Shown: positions 13,255 through 61,643 of the stretch, piece by piece
Layout of the letters: each line of letters opens with the position of its first letter
How positions within the stretch are numbered: position 1 is the first letter of the stretch
Assembly (NCBI GenBank): GCA_012522575.1
Contig: JAAYKE010000049.1
Location: forward strand, 2,445 to 66,444
Direction: 5' to 3'
Length of the DNA stretch: 64,000 nucleotides
DNA from: Armatimonadota bacterium
GTDB taxonomy: Bacteria > Armatimonadota > UBA5829
The notes under the pieces: model-generated
Databases searched by the model: none
Seen by the model: only the letters and a program-made list of their open reading frames with translations
What the model was told of the DNA's origin: nothing
Translations under genes and position numbers: made by a program

Positions 13255-13405
13255 CGGCTACTTCTAATTTTACCACAGCCAAAAAACACCGGCAAATTTT
13301 CTAAAAACTGGTGGAACAAATATGTTTGCTGCGTCGTATATATATTAGCAAACCTTCCCACCCTCTTTTCTCCTCCCCGGTCTTCCAAAGATCGGGGAGC
13401 TTTTT

Positions 13406-13512
13406 TGTAACTGCTCACGAATGATGAGTACACCTGCCGTAGTTTCCGATCTCCATTTCGGACAAGGCTTCGACAGAGGCCAGCCACAATCACTCACGAA
13501 GAGTAAGTTGTT
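13406..13512. repeat. MITE-like repeat, minimal copy (copy E)
   Basis: Begins 'GTAACTGCTCACGAATGATGAGTAC..CTG.CCGTAGT.TCCGATCTCC' and ends 'CACTCACGAAGAGTAAGTTGTTAT'; its termini are inverted complements, and it shares modules with the copies at 20945, 31502, 34612 and 61047. Confidence 0.6.
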
Positions 13513-13637
13513 ATTTTTTCATCCCTGACAGGCACAAAAGCCGGGCAGGATGGTTGGTCGCAGGGATGCTGAAACGAGACAGGCGAGGTCGATTCGGACC
13601 CCACCTGATTCACAATGGTAACGTCACAGACAAATAA

Positions 13638-20879: not shown

Positions 20880-20944
20880 GCGATCGAGTTTCAGTTTGGC
20901 ATATATCTTTGCAGTCCCGGTTTTTGTTGAGCCGGGGCTGCTTT

Positions 20945-21221
20945 GGTAACAGCTCACGAATGATGAGGTCTAGAGGTTAGAGGTTGGAAGTTGGAGGTTA
21001 GATGAGTTATTGAGAGGGTTATGCGTAGCCTCCAATTTTTGTCATTCCGAGGCGAATGCCGAGGAATCTGCTTTTTCCCTTCTCATTTCTGGGTCTCGCT
21101 TCTTTCGGGCTTTCGCGATTTACGTAAAAGCAGATTTCTCACTTCGTTCGAAATGACATAGTTTGTGTGGCTGGGACAGAGACCAGTCACTACAATCACT
21201 CACGAAGAGTGAGTTGTTACC
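20945..21221. repeat. MITE-like repeat, full-length copy (copy A)
   Basis: 5' end 'GTAACAGCTCACGAATGATGAG', 3' end 'CACTCACGAAGAGTGAGTTGTTAC'; the terminal 12-mers are inverted complements (11/12). It contains an internal short tandem 'GGTTAGAGGTTGGAAGTTGGAGGTTAGA' and the 'GTCATTCCGAGGCGAATGCCGAGGAATCTGC' module. Confidence 0.65.
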
Positions 21222-21295
21222 TACTTTGTTTGTGATTGACACGCCGCAAAGAGGGTGGTAGACTCTGACCGAAATCAGCTCAGGAGGGTTCCCAA

Positions 21296-31448: not shown

Positions 31449-31501
31449 AACTATTTTATTATAGCAGGTTTGCGATTCCCCATATCAGAGCATTCTGTCT
31501 C

Positions 31502-31694
31502 GTAACAACTCACTCTTTATGAGTAGTTGTATTGGCTGGCCTCTGTCTCAGCCACACAAACTATGTCATTTCGAACGAAGTGAGAAATCTGATTTTATGT
31601 AAATCGCGAAAGCTCGAAAGAAGCGAAACCCGGAAAAGAGAAGGGAAAAAGCAGATTCCTCGGCATTCGCCTCGGAATGACAATGAGCTGTTAC
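31502..31694. repeat. MITE-like repeat, short variant (copy B), inverted relative to copy A
   Basis: Starts 'GTAACAACTCACTCTT..' and ends '..GAATGACAATGAGCTGTTAC'; it lacks the internal ~85-bp 'GAATGATGAG...GGTTAGAGG' module; it lies directly upstream of the 1024-aa gene. Confidence 0.6.
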
Positions 31695-31741
31695 CCTGTC
31701 TCTTATTAGCCGTTCGGGTTATAATAGGACGATATAACTGT

Positions 31742-34606
31742 ATGGAGGCGATTGATTTGAACAATGTGAGCCTTATCGCGCTTGCTCTTCTGGTGCTGGG
31801 AACTGCGTCGGAGTGCTCCGCCAATGTATATGCATGTGACATGAAGTCGGGCAAGTTCAGCGTTAACTTCAATTGCGGAGGCAAAGGTCTCTCGGTGTGG
31901 TATGACGACGTCTGCGTCATTCGCGAATCGTCAATGTGGCTGCACAACCCTGGCTGGAACGTGCATTATTATGGCCTGCATCAGATGAGCGACAATATCG
32001 AGATGCGTGATATCGATGGCGGCAAAGAGGCCGTTGTCACCCATAAATCTGAGTTTTTTGATGGCACGCAGACGATAAGGGTCACCGCCGACAAAGTCAG
32101 CGTTGATTTCAAAAGCAAGCTGATAAAAGAAATTGAAGACGCGGATATGGAATACTGCTTCGGCAAGTTCTGTGCGGCTCCGATACTCGGCAGACCATAC
32201 ACAGGCGTCACGCACACAGGCAAAAATGAAAAGGGAGTTGTCCCTATTCGCGCTACCAGTCCGGATTCCTGGTCGCAACTACTCACATCCGAATCTTTCA
32301 ATAAACTCGAAATTGATACGCGGATTGGCAAGATGACGCTGGAGGTGAGCGGATACCCGAGTTCGTTGATGATGATGGACTATCGGTTGAACCAATACCA
32401 CGACATCGACGAGATTCCATATTTCTGGTGTGGAACGAATTGGCATTATGAATATGGCAGGGAATACGCCGGAAACGTCACTCTCACTATGCAGCCTCAC
32501 GCTAAAGCCGCCGCCCCTAAGCCCGTTTCGATTCCAGCCGCTTTGGTGTCGGACAAGAACCTGCGAAAGGCGCAATATGGGCCGGTGTATGTTATCCCGG
32601 AGCCGCAGGAGATGAAGCTGACACAGGAGGCGTTTCGACTGACTCCGAGCACGATGATCGTTGTTGCGGACTCGGCAAAGCGCGCTGATTTGCGCGGAGC
32701 TATGTCATTTGCCGAAGAAGTCAAGTTGCTGTATGGATTTCTGCCAAAAGTTGTGCGGGAGCGCGAGGCAGGCAAGAATCCGGCGATTCTGGTTGGTGAA
32801 GCGGCGTCCAATAAGCTGCTGGCTGCGCAAGCCGGCAAACGCGGTTTGGCCGCGCCGACCAAAGAGGAAGGCTATGCGCTGAGCGTGACTCCATCTCAGG
32901 CGCTGGTGCTTGGATATGACCAGCGCGGATCGTTTTATGGCATGCAAACCCTGAAGCAGCTTCTGGTGTCGGACGCCGGAGGGGCTGCGATTCACGGGTG
33001 CGAGATCAACGACTGGCCGAGCATGGCTTTCCGCGGGGTGCATTTGTTTACATCCAACGAGGCTCTGCCGTTTCATAAGAAACTCATCGACCGCATTCTG
33101 GCGCGTTATAAGATGAATAACATTATCCTTGAGGCGGAGTTTGTAAAATGGAAGGCCGACCCGGATATTGCGGTTTCCTGGGCGCAGGATCAGTCTGAGA
33201 TCAAAGAAGAGATCAAATATGCGAAGGATAATTTCATAGAAATCAATCCGCTGATGCAGTCCCTTGGGCATTGCGACTGGTTGTTTATGACTGGCAGAAA
33301 TCGCGATATCGCGGAGAACCCCGGCAAGCCGTATGCGTATTGCCCGACAAATCCTAGGACTTATCCGTATATCTTTAAGTTCTATGACGAGTTAATTGAG
33401 CTTTTTGATACCCCTAGATATGTGCATATCGGGCACGATGAGGTGTCGGAGACGTGGGGATTCCCGCTGGATGAGGAGTGCAAAAAGATCGGCGGCCAGC
33501 AGTTGTTTTTAGACGATACCCTCAAAGTATATAATCACATCACCAAACAGGGGCCAAAAGTGATGCTTTGGGGCGATATGCTGTTGTCTCGAGGAGACGG
33601 GCCGGATGCTACCCACGCGAAGGATGCGCAGACTGCGAAGTGGCTGAGGGATCAACTGCCAAAGGACATCGTGGTCACGGACTGGCATTATGCCGCGGCC
33701 AAACCCGAAGAATATAAGTCCCTGAAGCTGTTTATGGACGATGGGTTTGACGTGATCGCTTCGACGTGGGATACGCCGACCAACATCGAACAGTTTGCGC
33801 AGCAGGCCAAAAACGTGGGAGCTATGGGATTGCTGCAAACCACATGGGCGGGATTCAAAAGCGCGGAGAGCAACATTAAGGAGAACTTCAAACAGTTTTC
33901 CGCGTTTATTCTCGCCGCTGAGTATGCGTGGAACAGCGGCAAGACCGACCTGGATCACCTGCCATATAATCACGATGAGGAGTTTCGGCGGCAGTGGACT
34001 CCCAAGTCGATCGCGGCTGTTGATAAGTCCGGGTTTGCCATCGACCTTGCACAGGCATATAACGTGAGCCTTGCCGACAATGAGTCGCTGACAGGGTGGC
34101 TTGGGCTTGGCCCTCAACACGATATGTCGGCAGTGCCAAACGGGCCAACCCGATTCAGAGGGGACCTGTTTAAGCTGGCCGCCGATAACACAAAGCCGTC
34201 GGCAATTAAACTGGCCAGTTCCCTTGACGATAAAGCGATGCCTGAGAGCGTGAAGCTGAATGTCGGGCGAAAGGCGGAGTCGTTATTGTTCCTGCACACC
34301 TGCGCATGGCCGGATAAGAACAACCGCAAAGTCGGCTCATATAAGATCAATTACGCCGACGGATCATCTGAAGCCATCGACCTGCAGTATGGAGCGAACA
34401 TCGTATCCTGGCTGGATCAGCGCTCAATTGGCGGCGCGGAGAAGGTATGGGGCGGGCGCACGAAAGATGACCAGCGCGTGGCACTGTGGCAGTTGCAGTG
34501 GGATAACCCGCATCCGAATAAGAGCATTGAGTCCATTGAGTTCAATTCGACCCGCACGGAAGCCGGGCCGGTGTTGCTGGGGCTGAGCGCGTTGGAAGCT
34601 AAGTAG
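31742..34606 (+). CDS. Large secreted protein with a GH20-like (beta-hexosaminidase-like) TIM-barrel core
   Basis: Signal peptide 'MEAIDLNNVSLIALALLVLGTASECSA'; 'GVHLFTSNE...NNIILEAEF...HIGHDEV' resembles the GH20 catalytic region (the H.GGDE-like block); the C-terminal ~200 aa form a beta-rich domain; the ORF-track start at 31532 runs through repeat B and is rejected. Confidence 0.4.
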   Translation: MEAIDLNNVSLIALALLVLGTASECSANVYACDMKSGKFSVNFNCGGKGLSVWYDDVCVIRESSMWLHNPGWNVHYYGLHQMSDNIEMRDIDGGKEAVVTHKSEFFDGTQTIRVTADKVSVDFKSKLIKEIEDADMEYCFGKFCAAPILGRPYTGVTHTGKNEKGVVPIRATSPDSWSQLLTSESFNKLEIDTRIGKMTLEVSGYPSSLMMMDYRLNQYHDIDEIPYFWCGTNWHYEYGREYAGNVTLTMQPHAKAAAPKPVSIPAALVSDKNLRKAQYGPVYVIPEPQEMKLTQEAFRLTPSTMIVVADSAKRADLRGAMSFAEEVKLLYGFLPKVVREREAGKNPAILVGEAASNKLLAAQAGKRGLAAPTKEEGYALSVTPSQALVLGYDQRGSFYGMQTLKQLLVSDAGGAAIHGCEINDWPSMAFRGVHLFTSNEALPFHKKLIDRILARYKMNNIILEAEFVKWKADPDIAVSWAQDQSEIKEEIKYAKDNFIEINPLMQSLGHCDWLFMTGRNRDIAENPGKPYAYCPTNPRTYPYIFKFYDELIELFDTPRYVHIGHDEVSETWGFPLDEECKKIGGQQLFLDDTLKVYNHITKQGPKVMLWGDMLLSRGDGPDATHAKDAQTAKWLRDQLPKDIVVTDWHYAAAKPEEYKSLKLFMDDGFDVIASTWDTPTNIEQFAQQAKNVGAMGLLQTTWAGFKSAESNIKENFKQFSAFILAAEYAWNSGKTDLDHLPYNHDEEFRRQWTPKSIAAVDKSGFAIDLAQAYNVSLADNESLTGWLGLGPQHDMSAVPNGPTRFRGDLFKLAADNTKPSAIKLASSLDDKAMPESVKLNVGRKAESLLFLHTCAWPDKNNRKVGSYKINYADGSSEAIDLQYGANIVSWLDQRSIGGAEKVWGGRTKDDQRVALWQLQWDNPHPNKSIESIEFNSTRTEAGPVLLGLSALEAK

Positions 34607-34611
34607 AGCGC

Positions 34612-34905
34612 AGCGAGACATCTGCTTTTCGTAAAACGCGAAAGCTCGAAAGAAGCGAAATGCAGAAAAGGGAAGGGAAAAAGCAGATTCCTCGGCATTC
34701 GCCTCGGAATGACAATTTAGTTGACACATCCAAGCGCAGTGGCTGGCCTCTGTACCCAGCCACACAAACTATGTCATTTCGAACGAAGTGAGAAGTCTGC
34801 TTTTTTCGAAGTCCGAGGTCAGATGTCCGATGTCCGATACGGGAAACCGCAAACCCTCTCAATAACCCTTCTAACCTCTAACTTCCAACCTCTAACCTCT
34901 AGATT
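34612..34905. repeat. MITE-like repeat, rearranged/degenerate copy (copy C)
   Basis: It contains the 'GCCTCGGAATGACAA', 'GGCTGGCCTCTG..CAGCCACACAAACTATGTCATTTCGAACGAAGTGAGAA' and 'CTAACCTCTAACTTCCAACCTCTAACC' modules of the family in permuted order; no clean TIRs. Confidence 0.5.
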
Positions 34906-49380: not shown

Positions 49381-49500
49381 TCATCGGGAAAATCTGCCCT
49401 TTTTGCCAGACTCCTATAAAATCGGAGGACGATTGGGATTCGGATGACGACGACGATGGTTGGGATTCCGAGGAATATGATGATGACTGGGATTACTGAT
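49381..49500 (+). pseudogene. Fragment of a fourth zinc-finger paralog fused to an acidic Trp-rich tail (no ATG start)
   Basis: The in-frame translation '...GKICPFCQTPIKSEDDWDSDDDDDGWDSEEYDDDWDY*' carries only the first CxxC of the paralog motif; the upstream in-frame stop leaves no canonical start. Confidence 0.4.
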
Positions 49501-60969: not shown

Positions 60970-61046
60970 TTCATACCTCCTGACTTATGGTATCACACGC
61001 CCTGCTTCCCGGCAATTGTTCTTATGCTTTGCCTGCTATCCGGCAG

Positions 61047-61348
61047 GTAACAGCTCACGAATGATGAGTACTCCTGTCCGTAGTGTCCGATCTCCGTCTC
61101 GGACTAGGCCGTTTGGAGGTTAGAAGTTGGAAGTTAGAGGTTAGAAGGTTTATTGAGAGGGTTCGAGTAGCCTCCAAATTTTGTCATTCCGAGGCAAATG
61201 CCGAGGAATCTGCTTTTTTCCGGGTTTCGTTTCTTTCGAGCTTTCGCGATTTACGAAACGGTATCTAACTTCGTTCGAAATGACATAGTTAATGTGGCCG
61301 GGACAGAGGCACGGCCACTACAATAACTCACGAAGAGTGAGTTGTTAT
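61047..61348. repeat. MITE-like repeat, full-length copy (copy D), same orientation as copy A
   Basis: 5' 'GTAACAGCTCACGAATGATGAGTACTCCTGTCCGTAGTGTCCGATCTCC', 3' 'ACTCACGAAGAGTGAGTTGTTAT'; it contains the 'GGAGGTTAGAAGTTGGAAGTTAGAGGTTAGAAGG' short tandem repeat and the 'GTCATTCCGAGGCAAATGCCGAGGAATCTGC' module. Confidence 0.65.
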
Positions 61349-61424
61349 TCCCGGCAGCAATATTTTGACCGTGCGGCGCGAAAGTGGTAGACTATAGATG
61401 ATGCCGGTCGGCCAACTGGTCGAC

Positions 61425-61525
61425 GCAACTGGCCCGCTGGGGGTGCTCCGGAGAATATACGGGGCTGAGAAGCTCGAATGAGCTAACCCTTTGAACCTGC
61501 GTATAGAGAATGCAGAGCGTTTTCG
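61425..61525 (+). promoter_or_regulatory. TPP (THI-box) riboswitch upstream of thiE-thiC-thiL
   Basis: 'CTGGGGGTGC....GGGGCTGAGA......ACCCTTTGAACCTG.......AATGCAGAGCG' matches the THI-element conserved blocks (GGGGUGC / GCUGAGA / ACCC..ACCUG / AAUGC.AGCG). Confidence 0.75.
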
Positions 61526-61643
61526 TCCCTCCGTGGCATATCCACGGACCTGCAGGGAAGCGGAGAGGGTGCTTTTAGGCCGTGAGTCCCCGTCTCCGGA
61601 GGATTTGCGGCTTTTGTTATTTTTGGAGCCGGATTGAACTGTT

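Follow-up and report, generated by a model that had tools for sequence, protein, structure and literature searches.

A previously undescribed MITE family with a REP-type hairpin mosaic as its interior in an uncultured Armatimonadota bacterium

What kind of entity underlies a short, hairpin-rich sequence that recurs between unrelated genes of an uncultured Armatimonadota bacterium? The question is raised by the window, by which we mean the whole 64-kb stretch of DNA that was analyzed (G+C ~53%); it derives from an Armatimonadota MAG of an anaerobic digester, and contigs identical to it are present in anaerobic-digester metagenomes (ENA ERZ941572/SRR3166067 and JGI 3300038805). A preliminary description of this stretch had recognized a five-copy repeat family with 12-bp terminal inverted repeats (TIRs), read it as a non-autonomous transposable element, offered a structured small RNA as the alternative, and named further copies and target-site duplications as what should be sought, and shared leaders of paralogous genes as what might mislead. 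All five places do exist and are related: in blastn comparisons of the five segments against the window all five were linked together with nothing else at E<0.01, and an nhmmer profile built from 13 complete copies recovered these five and nothing further in the window. The 12-mer GTAACWGCTCAC, allowing at most one mismatch, occurs six times in the window against 0.28 expected, and none of 100 shuffles reached six. However, only four of the five places are TIR-bounded elements (108, 275, 193 and 302 bp), the fifth being a TIR-less mosaic of their inner modules (Table 1). The density in the window thus comes to about one copy per 13-16 kb.

Of the limits proposed earlier, those of copies 3 and 5 stand, together with their sizes of 193 and 302 bp, whereas those of copies 1 and 2 are corrected, with lengths of 108 instead of 107 and 275 instead of 277 bp. 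The extent of "copy 4" is likewise revised, and its description as a rearranged copy at 34612-34905 gives way to that of a TIR-less module array, the arrangement of which recurs at a second locus (L032). The complete copies span 108-308 bp. As had been claimed, all five places in the window are intergenic, each lying between called genes, both on the ORF map and by the gene calls of the identical public contigs. No plausible coding sequence was detected inside any copy; copies 1 and 5 are overlapped only by short ORFs of a mechanically made list.

Table 1. Repeat copies in the 64-kb window and the features mapped within and beside them
Feature	Position	Strand	Remarks
MITE copy 1	13407-13514	+	108 bp; short form: left end, module B, single R, right end
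MITE copy 2	20946-21220	+	275 bp; heptamer-module subfamily, TIR to TIR
Copy 2 left duplication CTGCTTTG	20938-20945	.	partner 21221-21228 CTACTTTG, 7/8
Copy 2 left TIR GTAACAGCTCAC	20946-20957	+	imperfect inverted repeat continues to 20967
Copy 2 heptamer tandem array	20965-21002	+	GAGGTTA x5.3, inside module C
Copy 2 head-to-head dimer of TGTC-tagged REP hairpins	21039-21158	+	58-nt spacer
Copy 2 R hairpin	21167-21190	+	GTGGCTGG...CCAGTCAC
Copy 2 subterminal hairpin ACTCAC-GAAGA-GTGAGT	21198-21214	+	overlaps right TIR
Copy 2 right TIR GTGAGTTGTTAC	21209-21220	+
Copy 2 right duplication CTACTTTG	21221-21228	.	8 bp short of the -35 box in the promoter-like site ahead of purO
MITE copy 3	31502-31694	-	193 bp; left arm deleted down to GTAACAGCTCAT
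Copy 3 duplications	31494-31501 TCTGTCTC, 31695-31702 CCTGTCTC		7/8 match
TIR-less mosaic ("copy 4")	34606-34905	-	same modules; no ends, no duplication
MITE copy 5	61047-61348	+	302 bp; hybrid of module B and heptamer module

The ends GTAACAGCTCAC on the left and GTGAGTTGTTAC on the right are present at all bounded copies. In their extended form they read GTAACAGCTCAC GAATGATGAG and CTCACGAAGA GTGAGTTGTTAC, so that 12 perfectly paired bases are followed by matches at 6/10 of the next bases. Hence, the 12-bp inverted repeat of the preliminary description is retained as a perfect core, while the full structure is an imperfect inverted repeat of 22 bp (18/22). A small subterminal hairpin is nested within either end.

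To detect target-site duplications we set the octamer preceding the left end against the one following the right end in the 13 copies that have both ends on one contig. In six of these the two octamers are identical (GCTAAACT, GCCGAAAA, CCTGTCTC, AAATTCGC, AAAATAGC, TTTGATTG), and in three others, window copies 2 and 3 among them, they match at 7/8 positions. One more copy (L019) has an abutting 7-bp duplication, and at window copy 5 TCCGGCAG (61039-61046) and TCCCGGCAG (61349-61357) are a 1-nt indel apart; a clear duplication is absent at two of the 13, namely L013 and window copy 1. Control octamers drawn from flanks shifted by 8-40 nt gave mostly 0-4 matches, and the one control with 8/8 is explained by a local repeat beside copy 5. 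The duplications sought for this family are therefore present. A duplication of fixed length directly next to inverted repeats is what DDE-type transposases characteristically leave when they insert an element, by cut or copy, at a staggered break.

The family extends well beyond the window. A 23-mer from the right end matched 38 loci of the metagenome collection, all in one digester assembly (LSQX01), one of them (L028) being the window's own copy 5 locus; counted as different 20-nt right flanks, and with the window included, the distinct insertion sites number 43, which supplies the further copies that had been called for. Most of the matching contigs stop inside the element and several both begin and end in one, as expected of a dispersed repeat in a short-read assembly. 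Lengths of the elements from this assembly are approximate because of "NN" gaps within the D/F region of the central module (L013, L019, L021, L025, L029, L040, L041, L046). Among 185,579 GTDB representative genomes a 22-mer from the left end had a single match, in an uncultured MAG (L001) with a decayed copy that preserves the left end, module B and the central module and is missing the right end. Neither end of the element matched IMG/VR, and the element matched none of the PLSDB plasmids. Pairs of sites with unrelated flanks share elements identical at 130/130 and 150/154 positions, and the right arms have a mean pairwise identity of 86%. This combination of 97-100% identical copies at unrelated sites with a mean arm identity of 86% points to an old family that has moved recently.

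These comparisons also bear on the proposal that the shared segments belong to leaders or trailers conserved among paralogous genes, or remain from segmental duplications, for which the intergenic position of the copies is the one point in favor. The genes flanking the copies in the window, which code for RicT, DUF362, PurO, MnmG, a GH20 hexosaminidase, RmlD and ThiE, are unrelated to one another; the copies are in mixed orientation relative to their neighbors; and the similarity between copies ends exactly at the inverted repeats, the flanks being unrelated. Given the unrelated flanking genes and mixed orientations, a shared leader or UTR does not account for the repeats, and we assign this explanation a probability close to negligible.

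Taken together, the TIRs, the 8-bp duplications, the near-identical copies at unrelated sites and the lack of any plausible coding sequence argue that these elements are genuine MITEs. Hence, the non-autonomous transposable element favored by the preliminary description gains support from the 43 sites, their duplications and their unrelated flanks, and we conclude that each is very probably a copy of a non-autonomous DNA transposon whose host is an uncultured Armatimonadota bacterium. In the mechanism that we propose, a transposase encoded elsewhere in the genome would bind both ends in trans, recognizing the 12-bp perfect core within ~22 bp of imperfect repeat, and would insert the element, by DDE-type chemistry, at a target site opened by cuts staggered by 8 bp; repair of this stagger would leave the 8-bp direct duplication. 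The interior codes for nothing and is dispensable for movement, given that the ends are kept in copies of 108 to 308 bp, with duplications in most of these.

As to the source of such a transposase, IS66 is to our knowledge the IS family in which 8-bp direct repeats go together with ends starting GTAA. Members of this family are described as having inverted repeats of 20-30 bp starting with GTAAGCG and 8-bp direct repeats (PMC11946415), and some IS66 ends start with GTAACCG (PMC12888890). Our element resembles them in its 5'-GTAA start, its 8-bp duplications and the length of its inverted repeat (22 bp against 20-30). The GTAA(C) is shared as in the ISPsy43-type ends, but the rest of GTAACAGCTCAC departs from the GTAAGCG consensus, and neither tnpA/B/C nor a full-length element was found in the loci examined. 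We also assigned each of the TIR-like 12-mers found across the loci to one of three classes (left, right, other); the last class proved to comprise a few chance matches with one mismatch and two degenerate MITE ends (the truncated left end of copy 3 and a right end shifted by 1 nt at L033). Element ends enclosing a transposase were not encountered in these loci, and no autonomous element with the same ends was present in ~400 kb of fetched loci or in IMG/VR. The GTAA terminus and the 8-bp duplication thus offer a lead to the IS66 family as a tentative candidate for the parent, one that we put at somewhat short of an even chance.

The modules listed in the preliminary description were all found on reading the five places, and its suggestion that the sizes are set by internal modules is borne out by their anatomy in the alignment. 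In the alignment, subfamily A displays the order left end, module B, R hairpin, 20-nt spacer, D..F core, second R and right end. Module B consists of GTAG followed by the hairpin GTCCGA-TCTCCGTC-TCGGAC, which also occurs in the variant form GT[TC]CCGA..TCGGAC. In subfamily B, module C, an array of GAGGTTA-type heptamers closed by TTGGAGG...CCTCCAA, stands in place of module B and the first R. Besides the R next to the right end, long copies have a further R to its left as a direct repeat. Window copy 5 combines modules B and C. In window copy 3 the whole stretch between GTAACAGCTCA and D is missing, yet its 7/8 duplication is kept. A further variant (L038, 6141-6437) has normal ends around three tandem 85-bp units, each a B hairpin plus an R hairpin, with no REP dimer. 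Across these variants the ends are constant and the interior is freely variable. The interior is a mosaic of module B, the heptamer microsatellite module C, the REP dimer D..F and the R hairpin repeated directly, and the size variants may have arisen by recombination among these modules, through deletion between R copies, tandem triplication (as in L038) and swaps between the subfamilies. Window copy 1, with its single R, may have lost the stretch from one R direct repeat to the other, or it may be a core form.

Two other origins for these modules were considered and rejected. Module B is not an independent GTAG REP, as none of its 16 hairpins is found outside a MITE; 14 of them follow the left end directly, and the other 2 belong to the tandem variant L038. 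The heptamer arrays had suggested STRR-like cyanobacterial repeats; the protein homologs, with MnmG 100% identical to an Armatimonadetes MAG entry, are from Armatimonadota.

The central module comprises the unit D, TGTC-ATTCC-GA-GGC-GAAT-GCC-GA-GGAAT-C, and the inverted unit F, GTC-ATTTC-GA-AC-GAA-GT-GA-GAAAT-C, which are two diverged versions of one hairpin design; in copy 2 the dimer units are TGTC-ATTCC-GA-GGC-GAAT-GCC-GA-GGAAT and the inverted GTCATTTCGAACGAAGTGAGAAATC. In the window units the stem starts with AT and has 5 bp followed by a tandem G-A/A-G mismatch and another 2-3 bp, closed by a GAAT or GAA loop. The tags point outward, with a spacer of ~45-60 nt in all D..F cores; the window units have TGTC as their tag, and L005 and L026 have CGTC. 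Contigs of other Armatimonadota keep the hairpin design through compensating changes (GC-GAA-GC, GC-GCA-GC, GC-ATC-GC), and related units, including those of L001 and L049, have continuous 8-bp stems, e.g. ATTCCGCG...CGCGGAAT.

This architecture recalls the CGTC-tagged REPs, which carry the tag CGTC, often TGTC and also CCTC, on 8-9 bp stems starting A-T, T-A, with a loop of 4-5 nt and a short 3' tail fitting CCA, and which mostly form head-to-head dimers with spacers of 20-100 bp, have no dedicated transposase known and include the Neisseria dRS3 (Di Nocera, De Gregorio and Rocco 2013, PMC3733652). The likeness to this class, with its dRS3 and NIME arrays, concerns the central module only, and extends to the tag, the A-T/T-A stem start, a 3-4 nt loop, head-to-head dimers with a ~60 bp spacer and clustered mosaic arrays. 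In contrast to the 8-9 continuous pairs of the class, the stems here are interrupted by the tandem G-A/A-G mismatch, and the tail of the window units is CTG(C) rather than the CCA type; moreover, most dimers here ride in a TIR-bounded element with duplications, and Armatimonadota are not among the five phyla of the 2013 list. Hence, the central module fits the described CGTC/TGTC-tagged REP class, albeit incompletely on account of the G-A mismatch and the CTG tail, and would extend that class to a further phylum. A literature search with the sequence of the hairpin unit returned unrelated primer matches only.

Hairpins of the dimer type also occur without the element ends, at window 34606-34905 and at L026, L032, L001, L005 and L049. 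Among these, the window mosaic, L032 and L026 are TIR-less arrays, in the same organism as the MITE, of the form [R - spacer - D - loop - F]; that of the window contains heptamer arrays at 34870-34901 and 34807-34838, F, R, spacer, D, loop and a diverged F. Further, the degenerate pattern GTCATTYCGAGCGNAGCGAGRAATC was recovered in 27 IMG/VR contigs (L063-L089) from many samples, often as inverted doublets, which indicates that the TGTC/CGTC hairpin unit is widespread and not special to the MITE. The IMG/VR doublets have T-runs on their 5' side and A-runs on their 3' side.

Such unbounded hairpins, the head-to-head tagged dimer in the central module and the small hairpin at each element end would be accommodated if the repeats were a REP/BIME-type mosaic whose spread, in the form of single-stranded hairpins, relied on a tyrosine (HUH) transposase, RAYT-like or other, or on recombination, and not on a TIR-recognizing transposase. 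Target duplications are not produced by IS200/IS605- and RAYT-type transposition, whereas most complete copies have 8-bp duplications right next to their ends; copies devoid of the REP dimer (window copy 1, L038) keep the same ends; and no tyrosine transposase gene was seen. For the same duplications we rejected an IS200/IS605-type palindrome-associated element, which the direct-repeat hairpins at both ends had suggested. Spread by such a single-stranded route is thus highly unlikely for the bounded copies, though it probably applies to the TIR-less arrays. REPINs offer a comparable picture: like the central module they have two inverted hairpin units with a short spacer, foldable into one long hairpin, but they are GTAG-tagged, RAYT-linked and lack duplications, whereas the element here has a TGTC-tagged doublet, a GTAG-preceded B hairpin found only inside the MITE, TIRs with 8-bp duplications and no RAYT in sight.

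In the 64-kb window, an unbiased sample, three of the four dimers are located within bounded MITEs with 8-bp duplications, and the hairpins of related genomes lack these ends. One might posit that a TGTC/CGTC REP dimer was captured inside a TIR-bounded MITE and has since spread by hitch-hiking on a DDE transposase; we regard this as unlikely, but, were hitch-hiking general, it would provide one concrete route for the spread of an "orphan" REP class. In any case, the family links a MITE of the TIR and target-duplication type to the CGTC/TGTC-tagged REP hairpins.

The abundance of hairpins might instead reflect structured small-RNA genes or cis-regulatory RNA elements kept for their fold. The element does have a strong predicted fold (z = -4.46), the R hairpin shows four pairs changed on both sides, a value reached by 5/500 shuffles, and the copies adjoin terminators and promoters. 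However, the minus strand folds equally well (z = -4.42), there is no Rfam match at the gathering threshold in the window and none at E<=1 over copy 5, the distal D/F stem is broken without compensation in several copies (GCAGATTTCTC -> GACGGTATCTC), the orientation of the copies relative to their neighbors is mixed, and the target duplications mark them as having arrived by transposition. The small-RNA alternative is not supported in light of the missing Rfam match and the strand-symmetric fold, and we consider it very improbable. The hairpins are conserved in the manner of REPs and MITEs generally, with nothing in them arguing for an RNA gene family.

As MITEs, which are roughly 70-600 bp in size, the elements are of an ordinary kind, and the family leaves the knowledge of how MITEs work unchanged. 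Like the bacterial MITEs Correia/NEMIS of Neisseria, RUP, ERIC, Nezha and MITEAba12, they are non-coding, fall in the 100-300 bp range, possess TIRs and target-site duplications, are present in tens of copies or more, lie in intergenic regions by promoters and terminators, and display internal-deletion size variants with strong hairpin potential. They differ in that their end sequence is new and their interior is a mosaic of REP-type hairpins and not a deleted insertion sequence; furthermore, Correia elements duplicate TA, whereas the Armatimonadota element duplicates 8 bp. The pneumococcal BOX elements and the BIMEs of E. coli similarly generate a size series by variably combining a few short modules, but unlike the present element they lack TIRs with target duplications. 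We therefore present it as a previously undescribed MITE family with a REP-mosaic interior. A search of open-access literature found no MITE described for Armatimonadota, and the family documents a high-density MITE in a phylum known almost only from metagenomes. It is also a source of fragmentation in assemblies, as evident from the contigs ending inside it, and its placement in terminator T-tracts and just upstream of promoters makes it relevant to binning, annotation and the inference of gene regulation in these MAGs.

Copy 2 has split the T-tract that follows the hairpin in the terminator of the DUF362 gene, and 15 bp separate its right end from the -35 box of a TTGACA-17-TAGACT promoter-like site (21236-21264) ahead of purO. 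Copy 5 ends ~20 bp upstream of a similar promoter-like site that precedes a TPP riboswitch and the thiE-thiC genes, copy 3 occupies the space between mnmG and GH20, which diverge from each other, and the TIR-less mosaic abuts the stop codon of the GH20 gene (34604-34606). An effect of the copies on the expression of neighboring genes is conceivable from these positions. At 13376-13405 (+), with a minus-strand gene on either side, there is also a terminator-like hairpin CTCCCCGGTCTTCCAAAGATCGGGGAG with a T-run, into which copy 1 has inserted. The TPP riboswitch-like element upstream of thiE-thiC occupies 61429-61575 (+) and scores 43.3 bits (E = 1.8e-7), which is below the gathering score of 54.3, and was hence missed by the default Rfam scan.

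Copy 3 is common to the window and a strain 98.3% identical to it (L053), and its insertion thus predates the split of the strains. The contig of this strain follows the window as far as the middle of the mosaic and is unrelated from window 34793 (L053 5616) onward, either because recombination took place at the repeat or because the contig, of low coverage, is chimeric. Empty sites were sought in orthologous regions identified by way of MnmG, GH20, DUF362 and ThiE, in contigs of the same lineage and in related ones. None was recovered: all the same-lineage contigs carry the window copies, and the relatives, 82-87% identical at the protein level, show different hairpin repeats in the corresponding intergenic regions and no MITE ends. 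The lack of a clean empty site is explained by this constant occupancy in the lineage and by the diverged intergenic DNA of the relatives with its unrelated repeats. In an ORF-spanning comparison of reconstructed empty sites, stop-free stretches run upstream of the true gene starts.

The intergenic spots of the related Armatimonadota harbor different hairpin repeat families (GATCCTGCGACTTCGCGCAGGATGAC, GGCGGCGATTCGGAGATCGCCGCC, CCCTCTCCCCCAGGAGAGGGGA), at L049 5500-5930, L001 3580-3790, L005 6250-6420 and 20790-20930, and L056-L059 4230-4500. Gene order in these relatives changes exactly at those spots. In one of them the DUF362 ortholog is immediately followed by a DDE_Tnp_1_6/DUF772 transposase gene (L057 4576-5262), at the place where the window has copy 2. 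The window also contains a 27-bp tandem repeat at 49431-49494 (2.4 copies, 75% matches), which is unrelated to the MITE.
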